64,000 nucleotides of DNA from Candidatus Poribacteria bacterium (GTDB taxonomy: Bacteria > Poribacteria > WGA-4E > WGA-3G): assembly GCA_965242965.1 (NCBI GenBank), contig OZ251518.1, positions 3,840,001-3,904,000 of the forward strand, given 5' to 3'. Below, one piece after another: positions 26,895 to 57,149 of this stretch (positions are counted from its first letter, which is position 1; every line of letters begins with the position of its first letter). Position numbers and translations under genes: made by a program. Under the pieces are notes generated by a model that had not been told where the DNA came from, did not search any database, and worked only from the letters and a program-made list of their open reading frames with translations.

Positions 26895-27386
26895 ATGAAA
26901 ACGCCCAAAATTATCACCATTGGCGTATACGGATATGACGAAGAGAGTTTCTTTTCTGCGCTACAAGCGGCAAACGTAGATACCTTCTGCGACATCCGCA
27001 GCCGGCGCGGCGTGCGCGGCGCGACTTACGCATTCGCCAACAGCGTCCGGTTGCAATCGCGCCTCGCGGCACTCGGCATCCGCTATCTCCATTGCAAAGA
27101 GCTCGCGCCGACGAAAGCAGTGCGCGACAAACAAGCCGCAGCGGATAAAGCAGACAACGTTGCTAAACGCGAACGCACTACGTTGGGAGAAGCGTTTATT
27201 GCGGCATACCACGCCGAATGCCTCGCGCATTTTGAGCCGCAAAGTCTACTGGACAAAATCGAGGCAGATGCGCAAGTTGTCGCTCTCTTTTGCGTTGAGA
27301 GAGAACCAGCGGCGTGCCACCGTTCACTCGTCGCCGAGAAACTGGCGAAAGAACTTGGACTGGAAGTTGAGGACATTGTCCTATGA
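26895..27386 (+). CDS. DUF488 family protein (second, divergent copy)
   Basis: IITIG, CDIR, YLHCKELAP and LFCVE...CHR. Confidence 0.85.
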   Translation: MKTPKIITIGVYGYDEESFFSALQAANVDTFCDIRSRRGVRGATYAFANSVRLQSRLAALGIRYLHCKELAPTKAVRDKQAAADKADNVAKRERTTLGEAFIAAYHAECLAHFEPQSLLDKIEADAQVVALFCVEREPAACHRSLVAEKLAKELGLEVEDIVL

Positions 27387-29608
27387 GAGTGCTAATTGTT
27401 GCGAAAACGCGGATGGGAAGCGGTGCGTGCATTGGCGCGCTCACGGAGAAAGGCGAGAGCGTGCGGCTTGTTCCGTTCAACGCCGATGAACACCAGGGCG
27501 CAAATCGGGAGTATGAGATAGGTGAAATCTGGGAGATTTCCGCGAAACCCGCGGCCGCTGTCATCCCGCCGCATCACGAAAACATCGTCGTCTATGAAAA
27601 GCGGCACCTCCGTACCATGACAGCATTGGAAAGCGCGATTGAGCTCCTCATGCCGCCTAACATCGGACACCCGCGTGAACTCTACGAAGGACTCTTACAG
27701 ATGAGCCGTAGCGGCGCGCTTTACATCGCAGAGAAGAGCGGGATGCCACCTTACAGCACAACGTTTTGGCGGCCAGACCAGGCACTCACCCGTGATACGG
27801 ACAGCAGACGCATTCGGTATCGTTACCCCACAGCAGATGGCGGATGCACGCTCACCTATGTCGGTTTTGAAGAACCGCTTGAAACAATCCCTGCTGGCAC
27901 CCTCGTGCGCGTCTCGCTCGCACAGTGGTGGAAACCGACAGACAGAACGGATAATGAGGAACGGTGCCACGCGCAAATTTCCGGCTGGTTCCTCGAAGAA
28001 TCAGTAGGCGAGCCCTCCCGTTCTCAACAGACATCACCGGTAGAAGAGCCCTCCCTGTCTCAACGCTCTCAAGCCGACATGCCGCCGCCTGAAACCCCAC
28101 GCGAATATCTCAAGCAAGTCTTCGGACACGACGACTTCCGAGCGTTGCAAGAGGAAATCATTACGCACGTCCTTGAAAGACACGATGCTCTGATAGTCCT
28201 ACCGACAGGCGGCGGAAAATCACTCTGCTATCAGCTGCCCGCGCTCATTTTTCAGGGGGTTTCTGTCGTCGTTTCGCCCCTCATCTCACTTATGCAGGAC
28301 CAGGTGATGCAGTTGGAACAAAAAGGCATCCCTGCCGCTTTTCTCAACAGCACTGTGAGTTATGACGCTTACGTTGAAACGATGCACCAAGTCAAACGCG
28401 GCGAGATTAAGTTGCTTTACGTCGCGCCAGAAACACTCGTGCGCAATGAAATCCTGCTGATGCTTGACGCGTCCAATGTCGCGTGCATCGCTATTGACGA
28501 GGCGCACTGTATCTCGCAGTGGGGCCACGATTTCCGTCCCGAATATCGGCAACTCGTCTCGGTGCGCGAACGGTTCCCGAACGCTGTCTGTGTCGCGATG
28601 ACAGCCACCGCCACGCCGAGGGTGCAGGCGGACATCACGCAGTCGCTGCAATTGCAAGCGGAAAACCAATTCATTGCTAGTTTCGACCGGGGGAATCTCT
28701 TCATCACTGTGGAACCGAAGGTTGAGTTGCTGCGGCAGACGCTTGCGTTTCTCAATGCCCACCACGGCGAATCGGGTATCATCTACTGCCAGACGAGGAA
28801 ACAGGTGGAATCGCTGTGCCACAATTTAAGCACCTACGGGATTCAGGCACTCCCCTATCACGCAGAACTGGGTGCGGAAACCCGCAAGCGACATCAGGAG
28901 GCTTTCATCAACGGCGACACACGAATTATCGTCGCGACGATTGCCTTCGGCATGGGGATTGATAAGCCGGATGTCCGCTTCGTCCTCCACGCCGGTTTGC
29001 CGAAGGAACCCGAGTCTTACTATCAGGAAATCGGCCGTGCCGGGCGCGATGGGCAACGTTCCGAGTGCCTGCTGCTATTCAGTTATGGCGATGTGGACAC
29101 GATTCACCATTTCATTGATGAAGGCGCGCCGAGTGAACGTAAAGGACGGCTAGAACGGTTGAATACGCTTGTCGACTGGGCGACTTCGCTGGAGTGCCGT
29201 CGCAAGGGGTTGTTAGCCTATTTCGGAGAACAGTCCGAACAAGCCAATTGCGACATGTGCGATAACTGCCGCCAAGCACGGGAAGAACGCGTCGATCTGA
29301 CGTTGCCAGCGCAGAAATTCCTCTCGTGTGTTTATCGCACAGGGCAAATGTTCGGCGGCGCGCATATTATCAGTGTGATACGCGGTTCAAAAGCGAAAAA
29401 GGTGCTTGAAAATGGACACGACGCGCTCTCTACCTACGGCATTGGCACGGAGTATAGTGCGGCGCAGTGGAACTACCTCATGCAACAGTTTATCCAACAC
29501 AAGTTGTTGCGGCGAGATGCGCAGCACGGCAGTCTGCGTTTGACTGAAAAGGGGTGGGCAGTCCTCCGAAGCGAGGAGCCGTTTTTGGGATTTTCGGTGG
29601 AAAAGTGA
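27383..29608 (+). CDS. recQ: Fusion of an N-terminal dual-OB-fold-like domain (~205 aa) to a RecQ helicase (core, Zn-binding, RQC; no HRDC)
   Basis: RecQ motifs PTGGGKSLCYQLP, DEAHCISQWGHDFRPEY, ATIAFGMGIDKPDVRFV, QEIGRAGRDG and CRR...CDMCDNC. The N-terminus (LIVAKT...CIGA...VRL, PPHHEN, VSLA, CH) resembles dual-OB proteins. ATGA overlap with the upstream DUF488 gene. Confidence 0.85.
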   Translation: MRVLIVAKTRMGSGACIGALTEKGESVRLVPFNADEHQGANREYEIGEIWEISAKPAAAVIPPHHENIVVYEKRHLRTMTALESAIELLMPPNIGHPRELYEGLLQMSRSGALYIAEKSGMPPYSTTFWRPDQALTRDTDSRRIRYRYPTADGGCTLTYVGFEEPLETIPAGTLVRVSLAQWWKPTDRTDNEERCHAQISGWFLEESVGEPSRSQQTSPVEEPSLSQRSQADMPPPETPREYLKQVFGHDDFRALQEEIITHVLERHDALIVLPTGGGKSLCYQLPALIFQGVSVVVSPLISLMQDQVMQLEQKGIPAAFLNSTVSYDAYVETMHQVKRGEIKLLYVAPETLVRNEILLMLDASNVACIAIDEAHCISQWGHDFRPEYRQLVSVRERFPNAVCVAMTATATPRVQADITQSLQLQAENQFIASFDRGNLFITVEPKVELLRQTLAFLNAHHGESGIIYCQTRKQVESLCHNLSTYGIQALPYHAELGAETRKRHQEAFINGDTRIIVATIAFGMGIDKPDVRFVLHAGLPKEPESYYQEIGRAGRDGQRSECLLLFSYGDVDTIHHFIDEGAPSERKGRLERLNTLVDWATSLECRRKGLLAYFGEQSEQANCDMCDNCRQAREERVDLTLPAQKFLSCVYRTGQMFGGAHIISVIRGSKAKKVLENGHDALSTYGIGTEYSAAQWNYLMQQFIQHKLLRRDAQHGSLRLTEKGWAVLRSEEPFLGFSVEK

Positions 29609-53911: not shown

Positions 53912-55360
53912 CTAGTCATCCTGCTCATCCTGCCGATACGTCTCCAATTTCCGATGCAACGTCCGCACGCCGATGTCCAAAATCTTCGCCGCCTCCGTCT
54001 TATTCCCATCCGCCTCCGTGAGTGTCTTCTGGATGGCCGCCTTCTCAATCTCTGCCATCGTCATCCCCACCTTGCCGATGGCATCTTCGTCAAACGCGGT
54101 AGGAGGGACATCCCTGTCCCGATGCATTTCGGTAGGAGAGACCTCCTGGTCTCGATGCTTTTTCGTAGGCGGGACATCCCTGTCCCGATGTTTGGTAGGA
54201 GGGACATCCTTGTCCCGATGGATTTCGGTAGGCGCGTCTTCCCTGTCGTGAACTTCCTCGACCGGCGCAGGAAGCGGCAAAGGCGTTTCCTCCATCTGTT
54301 TGGCGACGGTTGAGAGCACCGTTAACGCCTTCTGCAGGATGTCTCTCTGGCTATGATGGGCTGATGCATCAACATCATCAGCGATTTGCAGCCAGCTGGT
54401 ATCCTCATCCGGAATCGCGATCTGAAGTTCATTCTGTTCCGGCATTAAGGCGGGTGCATCGTCACCAAGCAACCGGATTGCGGCGAAAATCAGCCCCAGA
54501 ATCGTCTTGTAAATCGCCACGTTTTCAGCAAGCGGCGAGGTTGCACGCGCGGGAAGCAGGGGTGCCGGTTCCAACTCCGACATAATCGGAAAATCACGAA
54601 GTTTCAATTCTGCCGAGGGGGCGACAATGATGGCACTTTCTACAGCATTTTTGAGTTGCCGAACGTTGCCGGGCCAGTCCTCTTGTTCGAGATAGGCGAG
54701 TGCCTCTGGGGTAATACCGGTGACCTGTTTCCCGTGCTCGGCACTGAGTTCCTTGATGAACGCGTGGACGAAAAGTGGAATATCCTCCCGGCGTTCCCGC
54801 AACGGCGGGATATGGATGCGAAAGAGGTTGAACCGATAGTAAAGGTCTTGCCGAAACGTCTTTCGTTGCACGGAGTTGCTGAGTTCGACGTTCGTCGCGG
54901 CGATGAGGCGGACATCAACGAAGATGCTTGTATCGCCACCGAGCCGCGTGAATTCGCGCGTCTCCAGCACCCGGAGGAACTTCACCTGTGTTTCAAGCGA
55001 CATTTCGCCGACTTCATCGAGGAACAGCGTGCCGGTATGTGCCTGTTCAAACACGCCGCGGCGGAGGGTAGCGGCATCGGTGAACGCGCCTTTTTCATGT
55101 CCGAAGAGCTCGCTTTGTAGAAGATCGCCGTGAAACACACCGCAGTTGACTGCCTTGAAGGGTCTGGTTTTACGCGGGCTATTTTCATGGATGGCCTGGG
55201 CGATGACATCTTTGCCCACCCCTGTCTCACCGGTAATGAGGACCGTGGCGTTTGTCGGCGCAACCTGCCGCACGCGGCGCAGCACCTCCTGCATCGGTGC
55301 AGATCTTCCGATAATGCGCCGAGGTCTATTATTGCTGGGAATTGGGGTTGGACGATTCAT
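53912..55360 (-). CDS. Sigma-54 enhancer-binding AAA+ activator (no sensory domain) with a Fis HTH; carries in-frame REP units
   Basis: GETGVGKD, ELFGHEKGAFTDA, LFLDEVGEM, WPGNVRQL and GNKTEAAKILDIGVRTLHRKL. Confidence 0.92.
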   Translation of the reverse strand: MNRPTPIPSNNRPRRIIGRSAPMQEVLRRVRQVAPTNATVLITGETGVGKDVIAQAIHENSPRKTRPFKAVNCGVFHGDLLQSELFGHEKGAFTDAATLRRGVFEQAHTGTLFLDEVGEMSLETQVKFLRVLETREFTRLGGDTSIFVDVRLIAATNVELSNSVQRKTFRQDLYYRFNLFRIHIPPLRERREDIPLFVHAFIKELSAEHGKQVTGITPEALAYLEQEDWPGNVRQLKNAVESAIIVAPSAELKLRDFPIMSELEPAPLLPARATSPLAENVAIYKTILGLIFAAIRLLGDDAPALMPEQNELQIAIPDEDTSWLQIADDVDASAHHSQRDILQKALTVLSTVAKQMEETPLPLPAPVEEVHDREDAPTEIHRDKDVPPTKHRDRDVPPTKKHRDQEVSPTEMHRDRDVPPTAFDEDAIGKVGMTMAEIEKAAIQKTLTEADGNKTEAAKILDIGVRTLHRKLETYRQDEQDD

Positions 55361-55629: not shown

Positions 55630-56394
55630 TTACATGTCCGCTAGGGCAATATCGCGAATCATCTGAGGATTTTGCCGGATCTCCTCAAAAAGATTGAGCC
55701 CTTCACGACAGACTGCCTCACACATCTTTTTGAACACGAACCCTTTCAGTGCAACGCCCATAACTCCAAGCGTCCGCGACAAGGCACTCCCCGCGGGAAC
55801 GAAATGGACATTCGGCGCATCAGGAATCAGTCTGCGATACCCCGCGCCGAGCAGGAAAATCTGAGTAACAGACTCCGGCACTCCTCCCCGGTAGGAGAGA
55901 CCTCTCGGTCTCGATTCGCTTCCTCCCGGTCTCGATGCGTTTCCTTCCGGTCCCGATGCGCTTCCCTGGTAGGAGAGACCTCCTGGTCTCGATGGGTTTC
56001 CTCCTGGTCTCGATTCCCCCAAAGGAAGTTGCAGTGCCTGAACGTATTCTTTCCCTAACAAAAAGAAAACCACGTCATATCGTGCGATTAACTCCGCCGC
56101 CCGTTCACGAAGTTGAAGGCGACGACTCTTCTCCAAAATTTCCGCCTTCTTCATCCCCTGAAAAGTGACGTTGTAAGGCGCGATTACGTCGTTTTCATTG
56201 AGCAGCCCATACTCCGCCGAAATGATTGCCACGTCTACGGATGATTGCCCGTAGCGCGTTCGGACTTGGTTCACCCCGTCCATCAACAGCGTATGTTGCT
56301 GGCCGGTATACATCTTGGCGGCGGGAGCGTTGTGGTTCAGTTTCTTGCTCGTGCAGGAACTGATGACTAATACGTTCATGGGCAAGAATTTCAC
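55630..56394 (-). CDS. DUF6884-like protein with a 46-aa in-frame REP-derived insertion
   Basis: LVISSCTSKK, PAAKMYTG, IISAEYGL, IAPYNVTF and LLGKEY. Confidence 0.7.
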   Translation of the reverse strand: MKFLPMNVLVISSCTSKKLNHNAPAAKMYTGQQHTLLMDGVNQVRTRYGQSSVDVAIISAEYGLLNENDVIAPYNVTFQGMKKAEILEKSRRLQLRERAAELIARYDVVFFLLGKEYVQALQLPLGESRPGGNPSRPGGLSYQGSASGPEGNASRPGGSESRPRGLSYRGGVPESVTQIFLLGAGYRRLIPDAPNVHFVPAGSALSRTLGVMGVALKGFVFKKMCEAVCREGLNLFEEIRQNPQMIRDIALADM

Positions 56395-56408: not shown

Positions 56409-57149
56409 TTAAGAATCTTGGACAATTTTAAGGATTCGCTGTGGCTCCTGTTTGATTTCCTCAAAAATGTCAAACCCGTCCCGACACACGGCTTCACACA
56501 TTTTCTGGAACACGAATTCTCTGAGGCTCCGCCGATTCGCCCCCGGAAGTGCTTCTAACGCTATTCCTGTTTCAACGGCGTGGAGGTTGGGCACGTCATC
56601 AGGAATCAGATGCCTAGCACTTGGGGCTATCAACACAATCACGGTTACTGCACGTTCAGTCTCAAAGAGAGGTTTGAGTGCCTTGACATCTTCCCGCCGC
56701 AAGAGCGAGAAAACCAGGTCATGACGTTCGATTAAAGCCGTAACGCGTTTGACTATCCCACTGTCGGAGTAGTCGATGTCACTGGCCTGAGGAGGAAGGT
56801 CGAACGGGACGATTTTATCGGACTCGTGGACCGGCCCTTCTTCTTTTGATACTAGCGGATCGTCCCATGGAAAATAGAGATCGATAGTCGTTGACTTTCC
56901 GTAGTCCTCGTGTGCCCGAACTTGTTCCAAACCTTTCCTTACCTGCCTCGGTCCAGGTCCTGTGAACATTTCTCCGGCGGGCACGCTGTAATCTCTACTT
57001 TCATGATACCAGCCATCCGCATTATAGCCGCTCAGTTCTTTGATGCGCCGCGCGAGACGTTCGGGTGAACCGTAATCTTCGCTCCGCAGCAAGTTATCGG
57101 GTTGATATTTCTGCCCCTTTGTGTAAGAGCTCAAAACCAAAATTTTCAT
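56409..57149 (-). CDS. Divergent paralog of the DUF6884-like protein
   Basis: ILVLSSYTK, PAGEMFTG and IVPFD; shared C-terminus LIPD.PN.H.V..G....FVF.KMCEAVCR.G...FEEI.Q.PQ.I..I. Confidence 0.65.
   Translation of the reverse strand: MKILVLSSYTKGQKYQPDNLLRSEDYGSPERLARRIKELSGYNADGWYHESRDYSVPAGEMFTGPGPRQVRKGLEQVRAHEDYGKSTTIDLYFPWDDPLVSKEEGPVHESDKIVPFDLPPQASDIDYSDSGIVKRVTALIERHDLVFSLLRREDVKALKPLFETERAVTVIVLIAPSARHLIPDDVPNLHAVETGIALEALPGANRRSLREFVFQKMCEAVCRDGFDIFEEIKQEPQRILKIVQDS

Follow-up and report, generated by a model that had tools for sequence, protein, structure and literature searches.

In a sigma-54-dependent activator gene, five head-to-tail REP units are read in frame and encode residues 371-422 of the protein, between the AAA+ part and the Fis-type HTH. 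This REP-derived segment is absent from other genera and varies in unit number and type among close relatives. We consider it likely that a rare in-frame insertion opened a tolerant slot in the linker, which has since changed by tandem gain and loss of units and by the arrival of fresh variants from the genomic pool, with selection keeping the frame. That a GTAG REP can lie inside a protein is already known; what is new here is turnover at the scale of a population, with old slots refilled with current variants.

The REP array and its genomic family

The activator gene lies in a window (the whole 64,000-nucleotide stretch of DNA analysed) of a genome, here G000, which is assembled in two contigs (5.70 Mb, completeness 94.7%); C1 is a contig of G000, and G001 and G002 are its two congeners. 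Several sequencing runs that contain the stretch are labelled sponge metagenome, and the named protein relatives of the activator are labelled Candidatus Poribacteria. The gene and its domains are:

53912..55360, minus strand: sigma-54-dependent activator gene, open ORF of 482 aa
54812..55315, minus strand: sigma-54 interaction (AAA+) domain, residues 16-183 (Pfam PF00158, E 9e-68, above cut-off)
54587..54799, minus strand: AAA+ lid, residues 188-258 (Pfam PF25601, above cut-off)
53936..54058, minus strand: Fis-type HTH (HTH_8), residues 435-475, intact (Pfam PF02954, above cut-off)

The original prediction was of five REP-like peptides in frame before an intact HTH, in an ORF that stays open. 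The 482-aa ORF contains these peptides as they had been written, and the PF02954 match confirms the HTH. Both hallmarks of a sigma-54 enhancer-binding protein, the AAA+ sigma-54 interaction domain and the Fis HTH, are present; profile searches detected no N-terminal receiver or sensor domain, and none of the named NCBIfam subfamilies reaches its cut-off with the activator. Across 55 relatives 45-50 of 50 HTH residues are identical, and best-match relatives of the activator are present in 39 of the 40 other genomes searched. About 100 residues (259-360; 54280-54585, minus strand) have no Pfam match yet are conserved in the family, and in the L1 loop the activator has Asp in place of the Gly that is the consensus of 12 orthologs. 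A structure model built from 12 orthologs was uninformative on the linker (mean pLDDT 44, low throughout).

All five units lie on the plus strand, and the gene reads them antisense. Copy numbers are exact 24-mer counts in the genome.

54099..54122, plus strand: REP unit 1 (family F1), 71 exact genomic copies, hairpin
54132..54155, plus strand: REP unit 2, a different F1 variant, 493 exact copies, hairpin
54165..54188, plus strand: REP unit 3, 27 exact copies, hairpin
54195..54218, plus strand: REP unit 4, 178 exact copies, hairpin
54228..54251, plus strand: REP unit 5, decayed, single copy, 5-6 mismatches to the nearest seed, no hairpin

Each of the five has the GTAG tag at its 5' end. Between unit 2 and each of units 1, 3 and 4 there are differences at 4-6 of the 24 bases, and unit 4 and its spacer nearly repeat unit 1 and its spacer, with 1 + 1 differences. 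Unit 5 is probably the oldest of the array, because it matches the first unit of the congeners' arrays. In DNA folding units 1-4 form 6-7-bp hairpins (z -2.3 to -3.7) and unit 5 forms none (z +0.7); the mRNA structure across the array is no more stable than that of shuffles (z -0.9). The inverted REP doublet of REPINs and BIMEs is absent from the locus, where all five units are direct, and inverted F1 pairs exist elsewhere in the genome. No donor array for the five units was found in the genome, in which the longest exact match elsewhere is 33 bp and each unit-plus-spacer string of the array is unique. As exact copies of four different common variants, units 1-4 may well have been imported from the genomic pool.

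None of the listed contig pieces from the sequencing runs spans the whole array, and the read depth over the units stems from other REP copies and has no bearing on the exact five-unit allele. In contigs of two runs a different unit adjoins position 54253 in the same frame; these joints may arise from repeats, and proteins P0004, P0122 and P0124 have the same arrangement. Contigs of two runs also have indels near 54353-54359, with a net change of +6 or -3. The runs containing the stretch have no RNA run listed among them and so have no bearing on expression.

Counting seeds in the genome revealed five large GTAG families, whose non-overlapping units were taken at up to 4 mismatches. The genome holds 10,065 REP units in 3,814 clusters, which cover 6.6% of contig C1.

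REP family sizes, in units: F0 4,847; F1 (the family of the activator array) 2,359; F2 1,778; F3 596; F4 485

F1 units are not chance matches: in a reversed-seed control on C1 (up to 4 mismatches) F0 gave 0 matches and F1 gave 5, against 2,359 real F1 units genome-wide. Exact copies of the F1 pattern number 1,496 in G000, 77 and 274 in the congeners and 0-3 in the other 38 genomes searched, a distribution indicating that the array units belong to a genus-wide GTAG REP family.

Turnover of the linker among relatives

Both congeners have three units, mostly decayed, in the same activator linker, and no F1-like unit within 8 mismatches was found at 26 activator loci from other genera, which suggests that the slot was present in the genus ancestor. 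Among 120 of the 260 matches of a protein database search, 14 belong to the REP-bearing clade and 106 show no REP peptide. It had been proposed that the segment should be absent or variable in orthologs and that genomes lacking these REPs should not have the same peptide, and both expectations hold: it is missing in other genera, was not seen in the 106 non-clade proteins and comprises 2-6 units in relatives. Cluster members extended the REP-bearing clade to 56 proteins (a 41-member cluster being represented by 15), and in 55 of these the linker is in frame and the HTH intact. The other protein, P0145, has a frameshift within the array, which would reflect either a real allele of this kind or an assembly error.

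In the near clade (n=22, core identity 95.8-100%) there are 22 different linkers, all in frame; this number of alleles may be too high if repeats were collapsed or miscounted in short-read assemblies. They contain 2, 3, 4, 5 and 6 units in 3, 5, 6, 5 and 3 proteins respectively, and the order of unit types changes among them. In two near-clade proteins the flanks are identical, yet the linker has 3 units in one and 6 in the other. The tree behind these groups is a quick one with most forks open, and only two of its groupings are relied on here, the 22-member clade (support 99) and the pair with identical flanks. None of 14 sister-group arrays contains the type to which units 1, 3 and 4 belong, which also speaks for import from the pool. 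One unit type accounts for 12 units in the near clade yet has only 11 six-frame occurrences in G000, and this rarity in the genome points to spread within the array.

Codon differences from the closest congener, G001, indicate that the flanks are under purifying selection, with 50 synonymous and 13 non-synonymous differences in the AAA+ domain and lid and 11 and 3 in the HTH region. The 29 alignable codons of the linker have 4 synonymous and 17 non-synonymous differences, a pattern that fits tolerance and not a conserved function. The idea that the palindromes act as a source of useful new peptide is not supported by these counts. In an activator ortholog from another genus (L023, G015:C2:1035060-1039121) an 11-residue tandem triplication unrelated to REPs lies shortly before the same linker.

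REP-derived inserts across the genome

A genome-wide census used a dicodon model trained on 1,538 REP-free ORFs, and a cluster was taken as internal where the frame is open and coding-like sequence lies on both sides. This identified 136 of the 3,814 clusters (3.6%) as internal and in frame, with 251 units in 116 ORFs; a unit within 2 mismatches is present in 101 of these clusters, in 87 ORFs, and relaxed thresholds give 181 clusters. By family, 142 of 2,359 F1 units (6.0%), 105 of 4,847 F0 units and 4 of 1,778 F2 units are internal, with none in F3 and F4. Because coding-like DNA makes up 85% of the non-REP DNA, coding REP copies are strongly under-represented, through selection, targeting to existing arrays, or both. 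The activator array is a tolerated exception among REPs that are mostly extragenic. REP-derived peptide is thus found in at least 116 ORFs of the genome, as had been supposed for this lineage, but the F1 and cluster counts do not fit the further claim that REPs 'routinely' become protein.

At a Pfam threshold of 1e-10 there were 87 matches among the 111 of 116 insert-bearing ORFs that were scanned as batches, and two more were scanned separately. Carriers of inserts include DapF, TsaB, ClpB, HisC and IleRS over NCBIfam cut-offs and, by Pfam, CarB, HemE, TGT, two UvrA, UvrD, RecQ and many Type ISP enzymes. For seven of ten genes (DapF, TsaB, ClpB, HemE, CarB, TGT and a CCA-type enzyme) tblastn gave a single match in the genome. 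The inserts add 2,718 residues, in which R, P, G and S are enriched and F, I, L and Y depleted. Two further sites lie in the window:

55891..55992, plus strand: second in-frame F1 insert of the window, inside a DUF6884 gene (55630..56394, minus strand)
28004..28063, plus strand: in-frame pair of decayed F1 units within the gene of a RecQ-like helicase with a dual OB domain (ORF 27371-29605, plus strand)

The DUF6884 insert, of about 43 aa, was missed by the strict census and caught by the relaxed one, and the neighbouring paralog (56409-57149) lacks it.

Inspection by eye of 23 candidate frameshifting clusters showed that nearly all are REPs between adjacent genes, and one is a clear frameshifting insertion, in a Type ISP paralog (C1:4437218). 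This frameshift count is a floor, since it was made without other genomes for comparison. Among 15 close Type ISP paralogs nine have REP clusters, eight of them in frame and one frameshifted. The frameshifted one, a restriction-modification paralog at G000:C1:4435286-4438641, is split at a REP pair. REPs also touch gene ends: an upstream coding frame ends inside a REP cluster in 87 cases, and in two paralogous operons (G000:C1:1035573 and 4925923) the next gene seems to take its ATG from the 3' end of an F1 unit.

The original prediction drew attention to an antisense strand free of stops. This is true of the antisense F1 strand in all three frames, but it is not special, as a fraction of 0.48-0.55 of shuffled versions, about half, are alike; for the top seeds of F0, F1 and F3, five of six frames are open. 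Head-to-tail F1 spacings are multiples of 3 in 38 of 38 cases inside genes, against 192 of 435 elsewhere, and the commonest such spacing outside genes is 33 bp (134 of 435), a period that may favour F1 in coding slots. Frame use of intragenic clusters is uneven, with 24, 14, 11, 9 and 4 for F1 against about 12 each (p = 3e-4) and p = 2e-6 for F0. This hints at selection on the peptide; the phase of the target site is an alternative cause, and the paralogs are non-independent.

Sixteen further genes, hand-picked as eight housekeeping genes with at least two units and then eight mostly with single near-exact units, were compared with up to five relatives, making 17 with the activator. For 13 of the 17, one congener or both also have REP sequence at that site, as a rule in another number or variant, and four (UvrA, DUF790, GH129 and HemE) have no REP at the site in the congeners found, G001 having given no match for four of the compared genes. 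Ten genes checked in other genera had no unit at the scan threshold (5 or 6 mismatches), save for a decayed unit (6 mismatches) in DapF of G004. Orientations or families are mixed in the slots of ClpB, the CCA-type enzyme and Type ISP enzymes, and the spacers of AnmK arrays are lineage-specific.

The DapF slot, parsed in 153 of 159 proteins, is 9 residues long when empty and 23 with one unit; lengths of 27 and 38 correspond to partial or full duplication and lengths of 14, 11 and 10 to the state after in-frame loss. The two DapF units of G000 are near-exact duplicates. In the one-unit, 42-bp slot the units of G001, G002 and G004 are 1, 5 and 6 mismatches from the seeds, and DapF of G000 and of G004 differ at 58 of 124 fourfold sites, which again fits import from the pool. 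In a DapF model (pLDDT 78.7, pTM 0.76) the fold is confident apart from the insert, which forms a loop of low confidence at 57-82 linking strand 48-53 to strand 89-95, in keeping with a tolerant site. Near residue 55 the insert interrupts the match to solved DapF structures. DapF of G007 (L137, G007:C1:917467-920982) is a partial match with internal stops, either a broken gene or an assembly error. A UvrA gene (L104:4-3186, minus strand; G000:C1:3066075-3069260) has a 71-aa REP-derived insert that four relatives lack, including one at about 95% identity.

Proposed origin and turnover of coding slots

The history that we favour would begin with the spread of F1 by a REP-associated tyrosine transposase (RAYT), an HUH nuclease that nicks and rejoins single-stranded REP DNA. 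Once, in the genus ancestor, one unit would have landed in frame in the linker before the HTH, and comparison shows that the slot was retained because the linker tolerates length change. The slot would then have acted as an accordion, in which tandem duplication and deletion, helped by the 33-bp period of F1, add and remove units, while variants now abundant in the pool of about 2,400 copies replace old units or settle beside them. The pattern is seen in the alleles, and the route may be either RAYT-initiated or ordinary homologous recombination. Selection would purge out-of-frame products and insertions in folded cores, and the peptide, presumably translated, would be a tolerated spacer, probably disordered and without conserved function. 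The same cycle may operate in about a hundred other genes.

How REPs spread is poorly understood, according to the accessible part of PMC8266576, which also reports that cleavage and strand transfer of single-stranded REPs by RAYT have been shown in other species. G000 has one RAYT (NF047646 above cut-off; L032:1030-2434, G000:C1:3146083-3149418), with 14 F2 units around it. A RAYT flanked by F1 was not found in G000, nor was a cognate RAYT detected for its two largest REP families; searches of G000 with RAYT-like proteins of relatives each found only the L032 gene. G002 has a RAYT-like gene (L036; PF01797 above cut-off) flanked by 14 F1 units and 59% identical to the RAYT of G000, as well as another Y1 gene that is F0-flanked, and G001 gave no Y1 match. 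A role of RAYT in array change may be supposed from these genes, and RAYT is at most a candidate agent of present-day change in G000. G000 also has an IS200/IS605-type element (L031, G000:C1:3123891-3127127) in which a TnpB-like ORF is 408 aa long and two stops break the TnpA match.

The array might instead descend from one old insertion that has changed by slippage and unequal crossing-over inside the array only, with no input from extragenic REPs. The near-duplication of unit 1 and its spacer as unit 4, the DapF duplicates in G000, the lineage-specific AnmK spacers and the lack of a long donor match are all in keeping with such a history. We nevertheless regard it as unlikely, as unit 2, for all its differences from its neighbours, keeps its hairpin and equals a 493-copy variant, the ClpB, CCA-type enzyme and Type ISP slots mix orientations or families, and four of the 17 genes have units where the congeners found have no REP, an example being the UvrA insert. 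The very high allelic diversity in a regulator, together with the uneven frame use that suggests selection on the peptide, could also speak for an adaptive contingency locus, in which linker length tunes the positioning of the HTH relative to the AAA+ ring and REPs supply heritable variation. This seems improbable to us, since length also varies in DapF, ClpB, AnmK and others, for which tuning is a less convincing account, the sequence of the linker is not conserved and a REP-free linker works in other genera.

That the segment is an artefact, a misassembly or an untranslated pseudogene, is very hard to credit. No run contig spans the whole array, but the in-frame linker and intact HTH recur in 55 of 56 clade proteins from many separate contigs, the flanks are under purifying selection, and inserts occur in seven enzymes and other proteins (DapF, TsaB, ClpB, HemE, CarB, TGT and the CCA-type enzyme) that each have one tblastn match. 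We therefore retain in-frame insertion followed by turnover from the genomic pool as the likely explanation. A bolder version, possible but doubtful in our judgement, is that in this genus REP slots are live templates that RAYT- or recombination-driven copy-and-overwrite continually rewrites from the genome's REP population in about a hundred proteins, essential enzymes included, by means of a 33-bp module with a tendency to preserve the frame. If so, they would form a genome-wide, repeat-templated generator of variation in protein loops and a natural record of REP spread.

The original prediction regarded GTAG REPs inside proteins as unexpected, yet many are catalogued in the accessible part of PMC3733652 (Di Nocera, De Gregorio, Rocco 2013), where they occur in frame in known proteins as singles, dimers and groups. 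Most intragenic GTAG REPs listed there are in Opitutus terrae, with grouped clusters in Thauera, and in the sigma-54 regulator Pput_0585 of Pseudomonas putida (671 aa) a REP dimer occupies 579-607. The targets include UvrA, UvrD and tRNA synthetases, and its authors suggest neutrality in linkers or loops. The load is higher in our genome (about 10,000 units, at least 116 ORFs) than in O. terrae, with about 70 rows, counted by eye and obtained by another method. Apart from a remark that two Xanthomonas recB genes have different REPs at nearly the same position, the text available does not follow strain variation or unit replacement within one slot. We found no description of slot turnover among near-identical alleles in the open-licence literature, as far as its accessible portions go, and no literature on REPs of Poribacteria among the matches listed.

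Rickettsia palindromic elements are likewise palindromic repeats in frame in many functional proteins (PMC3733652, PMC3184786, the latter reviewing repeat-ORF fusions, both in the parts available), and the inserts described here share with them in-frame insertion in conserved proteins and absence in outgroups. They differ in having CGTC ends and no associated transposase (PMC3733652, in part), whereas our units begin with GTAG and are associated with a RAYT in a congener; RPE-1 is longer and inserted singly, and some of its bearers were shown to be expressed, whereas the 24-bp GTAG REPs here form arrays that vary in number. With REPtron/RAYT (TnpA-REP) systems, REPINs and BIMEs, as described in the accessible parts of PMC8266576, PMC3116915 and PMC3686654, the present case shares GTAG REPs around a Y1 HUH gene, several classes of REP in one genome, tandem arrays and related RAYTs with different REP classes. 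Unlike these, the activator array consists of five direct repeats and is coding, and its putative cognate RAYT was found in a congener and not in G000.

The array also resembles a variable repeat locus in that its in-frame unit number varies (2-6) among close relatives. In coding minisatellites, or VNTR loci, in-frame repeat number differs among strains; unlike those, the array is built of heterogeneous units that match a mobile family found across the genome. At coding slots, alleles that are empty, filled, duplicated, overwritten or partly deleted can be compared at exact orthologous coordinates, so that insertion, duplication and conversion can be distinguished in natural data. They further reveal how much foreign peptide single-copy enzymes accept, and, being hypervariable, they offer markers for telling apart strains of an uncultured sponge symbiont. 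Units are also present in UvrD and in a second UvrA of double length, which echoes the repair genes in the accessible list of PMC3733652.
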